Shown piece by piece: positions 22,929 to 23,360 of a stretch of 64,000 bases of DNA. This stretch comes from Escherichia coli (GTDB lineage: Bacteria > Pseudomonadota > Gammaproteobacteria > Enterobacterales > Enterobacteriaceae). The notes under the pieces are model-generated. The model was not told where the DNA came from. It saw nothing but the letters and a program-made list of their open reading frames with translations, and made no database searches. The stretch is from the NCBI RefSeq assembly GCF_045037415.1, contig NZ_CP173440.1; one strand, written 5' to 3'. The position numbers were made by a program, and so were the translations under genes. Every line of letters starts with the position of its first letter. Position 1 is the stretch's first letter.

Positions 22929-23360
22929 TTGGAAAGGAGTCATGATTTGAAATTCAATAACAATCAAAATGAAAAATGTCTCAATAAGGTGTTGAGTTAT
23001 TTTTCAGAAAAAGATACTAACCTTATTGTCGTTATAATAGGGCCTTCCCGGTCAGGGAAAACCCTTCTGGCGAAGCGTGCATTATTTGATGGTTTATTTA
23101 TTTCACCAGATGAGCCGATAGCTGGTGAGAATTTTATTCAGAGTTTATCAAATAAAGATATCATCGTTGATGATGTTGTCCTTTTTGATATGCGGAATGT
23201 GTTGAAATACGTTCTTCATTCACTTGCCTCGGGAAGGAAAGTGATTTTGACCGGGCGTCCGGAAGATGAGTCTTTGTATCAGAAGCTTCTGTTAAATTTG
23301 CCTAAGGAAATTTCACCATTATTTATTAAGCTGGCGGGTGAAAATTCCTTGTATCTGTGA
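22929..23360 (+). CDS. hypothetical small P-loop NTPase
   Basis: 143 aa, AT-rich codon usage; Walker A GPSRSGKT and Walker B-like IIVDDV. Sits directly upstream of csf1. Confidence 0.4.
   Translation: MERSHDLKFNNNQNEKCLNKVLSYFSEKDTNLIVVIIGPSRSGKTLLAKRALFDGLFISPDEPIAGENFIQSLSNKDIIVDDVVLFDMRNVLKYVLHSLASGRKVILTGRPEDESLYQKLLLNLPKEISPLFIKLAGENSLYL

Follow-up and report, generated by a model that had tools for sequence, protein, structure and literature searches.

A predicted lidless AAA+-type ATPase gene adjoining the CRISPR-Cas locus of type IV-A3 on Klebsiella-type megaplasmids

In a 64,000-nucleotide stretch of Escherichia coli DNA (NCBI RefSeq assembly GCF_045037415.1, contig NZ_CP173440.1; hereafter the window), a small P-loop ATPase gene (22947-23360, + strand) lies directly 5' of csf1 in a CRISPR-Cas locus of type IV-A3. 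We find a real gene under purifying selection, which forms a deeply divergent tandem pair with a paralog; this paralog, the upstream copy, has been destroyed in the window by an insertion sequence (IS). Its product is modeled as a single-domain AAA+-type core of about 137 residues without a lid, and sequence comparison among related plasmids suggests that the types of this ATPase recombine independently of both flanks. The reading we tentatively favor, and to which we give a little less than an even chance, is that the protein has a plasmid-intrinsic role independent of interference. In Klebsiella, carbapenemase and virulence genes are spread by IncHI1B/IncFIB megaplasmids, and it is on these that type IV-A3 systems are located; the systems are also under development as silencing and editing tools. 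We know of no accessory genes for them, and if the locus is natively regulated, or linked to a function in plasmid competition, a conserved but variable small ATPase at its 5' edge is the obvious gene to suspect.

The longest open reading frame (ORF) at this position runs on the + strand from a TTG at 22929 to a stop codon at 23358-23360 and would encode 143 amino acids. A first-pass annotation, made from the window sequence, had described this ORF as carrying Walker A and Walker B motifs directly 5' of csf1, and this description was confirmed. The in-frame TTG at 22947 is the better-supported start. It stands 7 nt after a Shine-Dalgarno-like AAGGAG (22934-22939, + strand, as read from the sequence), and it is the RefSeq start of a 137-residue product in identical plasmids (WP_004197660.1, WP_038989759.1). 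The gene, which we call delta type, ends 62 bp 5' of the csf1 start at 23423, on the same strand. Its composition was also correctly recognized as atypical: GC content is 36.7% (36.5% at third codon positions), compared with 46.5-49.6% for csf1, cas6, dinG, cas5 and cas7. The ratio of nonsynonymous to synonymous substitution rates (dN/dS) was 0.19-0.44 for the delta-type gene, using variants from four plasmids, and 0.16-0.33 for the longer ATPase types of the same family; taken together, these values (0.16-0.44) exceed those of csf1 (0.05-0.15). Because dN/dS is low, motifs are kept between proteins only 23-31% identical and the predicted fold is confident, the gene is more than a chance ORF. 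Rfam gave no match near it.

Upstream of the delta gene lies the C-terminal remnant of a second ATPase gene, not recognized in the first-pass annotation, which we call alpha type (22626-22862, + strand; about residues 85-162 of the 162 in the intact protein), as delimited by tblastn, alignment and the IS junction. By tblastn, the remnant is 89% identical to L002:6475-6960 over residues 82-162, and the 64-residue ORF at 22668-22862 is this IS-truncated fragment. In the intact plasmids L002 and L027, the 162-residue alpha gene is followed, after a gap of 84 bp, by the 137-residue delta gene, so that the annotated ATPase gene is half of a paralog pair. The two paralogs share 30% identity (BLASTP E 4e-22).

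The element that interrupts alpha is an IS4321/IS5075-like member of the IS110 family (21300-22625, + strand, 1326 bp; transposase 21366-22370, NF033542 E 7.5e-102). Its ends were set by comparing the uninterrupted locus of L027, a simple insertion in L028 (L028:901-2226) and the window. The IS is inserted just after Walker B of alpha, at GATGACATTT^TCCGTTTTGATG (junction 22625/22626), and the same insertion is common to approximately 165 PLSDB plasmids with intact cas genes. The delta gene begins 300 bp beyond the IS end and is wholly outside the element. An origin of the delta ORF as an IS-associated fragment, which had been among the suggestions of the first-pass annotation, is excluded by these boundaries; nor does the gene map to the IS110 element, an outcome which that annotation had named as counting against its proposal.

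One known off-target of this IS is ureC, through sequence similarity (PMC8269217). At the alpha insertion site, ATTTTCCGTTTT looks like a further natural mimic of the target, the Tn21 inverted repeat, and alpha can be annotated as a second natural non-Tn21 target of IS5075. To the left of the IS, the window (1-2499 and 20234-21300) is rearranged relative to the simple-insertion plasmids: it lacks the N-terminal half of alpha together with the backbone genes upstream, L002:1-2498 is inverted at window 2499-1, and a minus-strand ORF for a Rep3-type initiator abuts the element (Pfam Rep3_N E 5e-5).

To place the gene in a wider context, we collected its relatives. A search of 1.84 billion proteins yielded 8 representatives of the ATPase family, and one of 5.8 billion yielded 43 clusters. 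The matches with a named source come from Klebsiella (K. pneumoniae, K. oxytoca and K. michiganensis) and Pluralibacter, and in plasmid searches Raoultella, Escherichia, Citrobacter, Enterobacter and Shigella appear as further hosts. Within PLSDB, 512 plasmids carry the ATPase gene and 536 a full csf1, and the two are contiguous in 501. The gene therefore stands beside csf1 in essentially all near-identical loci, and the co-occurrence check proposed in the first-pass annotation, by which absence from most otherwise identical loci would have counted against a link, did not refute it. These approximately 500 near-identical plasmids represent one lineage, and their count carries little independent weight. 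The other 35 of the 536 csf1 plasmids match in number a divergent lineage (43 records, 60-80% identity), of which the example examined, L001, has the long paralog only.

On MOBH/MPF_F megaplasmids of Klebsiella type, family members have csf1 on one side and a membrane-protein gene of the backbone on the other. They fall into four deep types, alpha (L002 and L001), beta (L007 and L003), gamma (L004) and delta (the window gene; found alone in L026), and in the main lineage alpha and delta are stacked in tandem. Combinations with csf1 are reassorted, since alpha occurs with csf1-II, beta with csf1-II, and alpha plus delta with csf1-I. Across the upstream membrane-protein gene, L001 and L007 show 97-100% identity; from the exact start of the ATPase gene onward it is only 41-74%, the ATPase proteins being 52% identical. 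A second break lies between ATPase and csf1: L001 and L003 have similar csf1 genes (dS 0.95) and very different ATPases (dS 2.7, approximately 48% identity). Between L001 and L002, identity is 72% for the ATPase, 78% for csf1 and 40-56% for the upstream small genes. The sharp break at the ATPase start weakens the view that this is a plain backbone gene, and the reassorted combinations weaken the view that it strictly co-evolves with cas.

The first-pass annotation had also raised the possibility of a regulator or accessory factor of the CRISPR system. The adjacency to csf1 was upheld, but the association proved not to be general: the gene is absent from related loci, persists without cas genes and is missing from the constructs used to demonstrate interference. 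By tBLASTN and profile hidden Markov model searches, no family member was found in type IV-A3 loci with csf1 54-64% identical and the same cas order (L020-L025). Because these loci have no homolog, the ATPase is not a general type IV-A3 component. The ATPase-free loci come from other Klebsiella plasmids, Dickeya, Salmonella and a Pseudocitrobacter chromosome, and the genes upstream of them are unrelated.

These divergent loci lie outside the IncHI1B/IncFIB megaplasmids, one of them on a 4.8-Mb Pseudocitrobacter contig. In the Dickeya locus, an Xre-type helix-turn-helix gene, a possible dedicated regulator, is found 13 bp 5' of csf1 (entry L022:5455-5988).

The ATPase gene is also retained in plasmids that lack the cas genes (L004, L005, L007, L008 and L009-L014). 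In L004, L005 and L008 it stands beside a short csf1 stub. In L007 and L009-L014, the stop codon of a beta-type ATPase gene is followed, after 30 bp, by three degenerate type IV-A3 repeats (GTATGTCCCCCGCTAGCGGGGGTTATCGG; L007:7506-7647), with no csf1; these repeats look like an orphan mini-array left by a deletion from csf1 to csf2. The identical beta-type protein (P0029) occurs in 58 plasmids of PLSDB, and 815 blocks of a large collection list it.

Published reconstitutions bear on the same question. The constructs are described as the cas operon alone, expressed from heterologous promoters, and are reported to give interference, maturation of CRISPR RNA (crRNA) and a Cas8/6/5/7 complex (10.1101/2023.06.23.546257; PMC12714566). 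The ATPase gene is unmentioned in the texts of both of these type IV-A3 studies, and our literature searches found no paper that mentions it. When the protein was compared with Cas and defense profiles, there was no NCBIfam Cas match, and PADLOC gave weak P-loop matches only (E at least 0.004). The view that type IV-A3 systems in general contain the ATPase, or require it, is thus not supported.

To ask what the protein might do, we turned to its motifs and predicted fold. On the + strand, sequence and family alignment identify a Walker A motif, GPSRSGKT (23040-23063), that follows the GxxxxGK[ST] pattern of the AAA+ superfamily (ASCE P-loop NTPases) and has a family-invariant Lys. The Walker B motif, DIIVDD (23157-23174), fits the hhhhD[DE] pattern and is followed by a family-invariant FD motif; its first Asp is invariant, and P0025 and P0026 have Gly in place of the second acidic residue. 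The alignment also shows a family-invariant sensor-1-like Thr, which lies in VILTG (23250-23252; strand 99-103 of the model). Across members that are 23-31% identical, the invariant positions are the Lys of Walker A, the Asp of Walker B, the FD motif, the sensor-1 Thr and one Pro. At the second Gly of the GxxGxGK[ST] P-loop, the window allele has Arg (23049-23051) where every other family member has Gly; the same Arg allele was found in L027, in which the alpha paralog is intact. The candidate Box VII (arginine finger) position is occupied by the Arg of 'SRL' in the alpha, beta (L007) and gamma types, by Asn in delta and by Ser in P0025.

An AlphaFold2 model of the ATPase, built from a 12-sequence alignment, was confident (predicted local distance difference test score 83, predicted template modeling score 0.81). 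Its elements follow the order a0-b1-[P-loop]-a1-b2-a2-b3(Walker B)-a3-b4(sensor 1)-a4-b5, and the model then ends. It thus contains what is expected of an AAA+ core, namely the alpha-beta-alpha arrangement, the a0 helix, five strands and a polar sensor-1 residue at the end of b4. There is no C-terminal alpha-helical lid and no sensor 2, as the protein stops 7-10 residues after b5; the extra tail of the 162-residue paralog is modeled as one short helix and a disordered segment. Structure prediction, which had been suggested as a check, therefore agrees with the P-loop NTPase identity given in the first-pass annotation. The statement that the protein is neither a helicase nor an ABC ATPase also holds: it has one 137-residue domain, no LSGGQ and no second RecA-like domain, and its ABC matches cover the P-loop only (E 0.0025-0.2).

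Matches of the ATPase family in Pfam, NCBIfam, PADLOC and PHROGs were P-loop-level or sub-threshold only, and for this reason no family assignment is possible. The deposited label 'NB-ARC domain protein' does not survive inspection. The PF00931 match has E 0.32 and covers only residues 15-52, around the P-loop, a second fragment has E 9.6, and the long paralog reaches E 0.03. In contrast to NB-ARC and other STAND proteins, the small ATPase lacks the helical and winged-helix domains ARC1 and ARC2 as well as sensor repeats and an effector domain, and it ends after b5. The label, which is carried by hundreds of plasmid records, is unfounded.

Within the AAA+ proteins, the core shows a weak and unproven lean toward the DnaA/Hda branch. 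Like DnaA domain III and Hda, the family combines the same core fold with Walker A, a Walker B 'DD' and a sensor-1 Thr, and it has the spacing and motif pattern ...SG+KhhhTG.P.d.EL...L.SRL. Alignment of the long paralogs to E. coli Hda with hhalign covers 109 columns at 27% identity, with E 1e-3 and a probability of only 22%, and places the 'SRL' Arg on Hda R153, which we take to be the arginine finger. The corresponding alignment to DnaA covers 84 columns (E 5e-3); of the controls, DnaC aligned at the P-loop only and Tdk not at all. NCBIfam TIGR03420 (Hda) matches of the long paralogs span the whole domain at E 8e-5 to 3e-4, scoring 20.3-22.2 bits against a cut-off of 194.8, whereas the delta protein itself had no Hda match in the NCBIfam search.

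Structural searches gave a mixed picture. In the AFDB Foldseek list, HdaA/DnaA-domain proteins come top after the family members themselves. Sequence-profile searches of the PDB did not single out Hda or DnaA, and in a Foldseek search of the PDB with the paralog model, NSF, RFC and lidless sigma-54-type cores rank ahead of Hda. Membership of the Hda/DnaA group is therefore suggestive only, being unconfirmed by either PDB search. Unlike DnaA and Hda, the small ATPases have no lid domain, sensor 2 or DNA-binding domain, and the delta type has no Box VII Arg. The beta-clamp-binding motif has the consensus QL[SD]LF or QLxLxh; no N-terminal motif of this kind is present in the ATPase alignments, where the N-termini read MKFNNNQ... 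and M..D..LPALV...

Other comparisons are equally partial. Stand-alone, lidless sigma-54-type P-loop domains (PDB 3co5 and 3n70) resemble the small ATPase in length (132-142 residues) and in having a lidless AAA+ core, with target-normalized TM-scores of 0.64 and 0.54, but they are only 10-15% identical to it, and the ATPase has no GAFTGA loop and no sign of a sigma-54 link. Both are structural-genomics fragments or orphan domains without assigned function. As a small P-loop protein adjoining a class 1 CRISPR effector operon, the ATPase also recalls Csx3-AAA and the TnsC/TniB proteins of CRISPR-associated transposons, and MuB and transposase-ATPase cores are among its fold matches. The PADLOC match to Csx3-AAA (E 0.004-0.007) is confined to the P-loop, no transposition genes accompany the small ATPase, and it is not kept across type IV-A3 loci.

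A plasmid-intrinsic role could be envisaged as follows. The ATPase family would be the occupant of a polymorphic slot between the backbone membrane-protein gene and csf1, a lineage-restricted neighbor of the type IV-A3 locus that is no Cas component and would be dispensable for crRNA-guided interference. Nucleotide binding probably matters, given that divergent types all keep the Lys of Walker A, the Asp of Walker B and the sensor-1 Thr. Robust hydrolysis and classical ring formation are doubtful, since there is no lid and family members differ both at the second Walker B acid and at the Box VII Arg, and from this doubt we infer a switch or an adaptor docked on a further P-loop protein. The protein would bind ATP and work as a slow nucleotide-dependent switch or partner subunit and not as a motor; its docking partner, at a guess, would be another P-loop or AAA+ protein such as its own paralog or an initiator-clade ATPase. 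The benefit would fall to the plasmid itself, through establishment, replication control or inter-plasmid competition, and not to CRISPR interference.

Several observations weigh against this interpretation, and most of them would be expected if the ATPase were instead a clade-specific type IV-A3 accessory factor or regulator which, alone or with its paralog, tunes the native system without being needed for basal interference. Possible targets would be DinG engagement at R-loops, cas or crRNA expression, or in-trans spacer acquisition. Every family member found adjoins the 5' side of a type IV-A3 csf1 or of a csf1 remnant and in this strict adjacency resembles a dedicated accessory gene. The gene is co-oriented with csf1 in every lineage, even where Csf1 is approximately 52-78% identical, intergenic gaps are short (62-84 bp), and the family occurs nowhere else in the two protein collections searched. 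The identity break between L001 and L007 falls exactly at the ATPase 5' end, and ATPase divergence between L001 and L002 is near that of csf1, so that the ATPase would belong to a variable tract which also holds the cas genes. Some copies have decayed after cas loss (L005 has acquired a premature stop, L026 a frameshift), and heterologous over-expression could mask a regulatory or fine-tuning role. Nevertheless, other type IV-A3 clades with the same cas order do without the ATPase, and a large cas-less lineage retains a copy that is intact and identical throughout. L001 and L003 have csf1-II in common yet carry alpha and beta ATPases, respectively, a pairing that speaks against close co-adaptation of the ATPase and Csf1. 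Constructs described as containing the cas operon only are reported to give interference, to mature crRNA and to assemble the complex, and no Cas or defense profile matches the protein. On balance, we regard an accessory role as a serious possibility but an unlikely one.

A role in conflict figures in two further proposals. The first-pass annotation had listed an acquired anti-defense gene among its suggestions, and the protein might be an anti-defense or plasmid-competition effector, a free-standing nucleotide-binding domain (NBD) that acts as a decoy by co-assembling with an oligomerizing P-loop protein and poisoning it. The victim, encoded by the host or by a rival plasmid, could for example be a STAND/Avs sensor, or else an initiator or loader of the DnaA/DnaC type. 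The family evolves in a conflict-like pattern, which prompts this proposal, and we nonetheless consider it improbable. A broader formulation, which we rate as doubtful, sees the csf1-side slot as a polymorphic, fast-evolving and independently recombining cassette of lidless AAA+ 'half-ATPases' that would be either an unrecognized type IV-A3 partner or a new class of decoy-NBD effector in anti-defense or competition. In its partner form, such a cassette might possibly couple DinG/R-loop silencing to the initiator-type ATPases of target or host. A last possibility, and a very improbable one, is that the gene no longer functions and is merely carried along as a relic, whether as a decaying duplicate or as a fragment associated with the IS. 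The Arg at the otherwise invariant second P-loop Gly, the destruction of alpha in the window, the removal of the upstream promoter context by the IS-linked rearrangement and the dispensability of the gene in published reconstitutions could all be read in this way. Yet the ORF is intact in approximately 500 plasmids, its dN/dS is well below 1, the delta gene is wholly outside the IS, and the Arg allele also occurs together with an intact paralog. Residues other than Gly at this P-loop position occur in RecA and TK1-type P-loops. Whichever reading is preferred, the fold is ordinary and the ATPase family uncharacterized, the architecture and genomic behavior are unusual for an AAA+ protein, and nothing so far points to a new mechanism.

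The cas genes follow the ATPase gene on the + strand. They are csf1 (Cas8-like, 23423-24214; from the ORF and the published gene order, 10.1101/2023.06.23.546257), cas6/csf5 (24217-24783; annotated Cas6/CasE in identical plasmids), casDinG/csf4 (24786-26660; DinG and Csf4 profiles, RefSeq coordinates carried over from L002), csf3/cas5 (26654-27361; from its position within the operon) and csf2/cas7 (27366-28397; TIGR03115 E 2.4e-13). This order, csf1-cas6-dinG-cas5-cas7, matches that published for type IV-A3 (10.1101/2023.06.23.546257). A CRISPR array with the 29-nt repeat GTATTCCCCCCGTGTGCGGGGGTTATCGG and a period of 61 nt occupies 28463-29404 (+ strand).

The first-pass annotation had placed the ATPase gene at the head of the csf operon. 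Its adjacency to csf1 on the same strand stands, but the cas operon may have its own promoter downstream of the ATPase gene. A promoter-like TTGCCA-16-TATTTT at 23380-23407 (+ strand) is a consensus match only, and three promoter-like sites were found where 2.4 were expected by chance. Its -35-like TTGCCA overlaps the inverted repeat TGCCATCAAAATGGCA (23381-23396; TGCCA-N-TGGCA), which lies 25-40 bp 5' of csf1 and is partly kept in L001 and L003, whose flanks are otherwise unalignable. This repeat could serve as an operator or a promoter element, or it could act as a weak terminator.

Within the array, the spacers at 28675-28706 and 28736-28767 are adjacent near-duplicates, with repeat-plus-spacer units that are 93% identical, and they look as though they derive from two acquired variants of a single protospacer. 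A group II intron (29771-31588; Rfam RF02005, 186.6 bits, 29771-29996) lies between the end of the array and umuD (31674-32096), and the ORF at 30101-31588 can be read, from its sequence, as the putative reverse transcriptase of the intron. Upstream of the locus in intact plasmids are a ParB-like gene of 413 residues and a methyltransferase-like gene of 202 residues (L002:3482-4723 and L002:1248-1856; PHROGs only), and for the upstream small genes of 131, 135 and 136 residues there was no informative family match in PADLOC, PHROGs or NCBIfam. Downstream, umuDC is followed by ORFs (33387-34378) that match an Xre-antitoxin/RES-toxin pair annotated at the same place in related plasmids. A MobH relaxase gene (47129-50062) and TraD (region 45013-50062) are found approximately 22-27 kb away.
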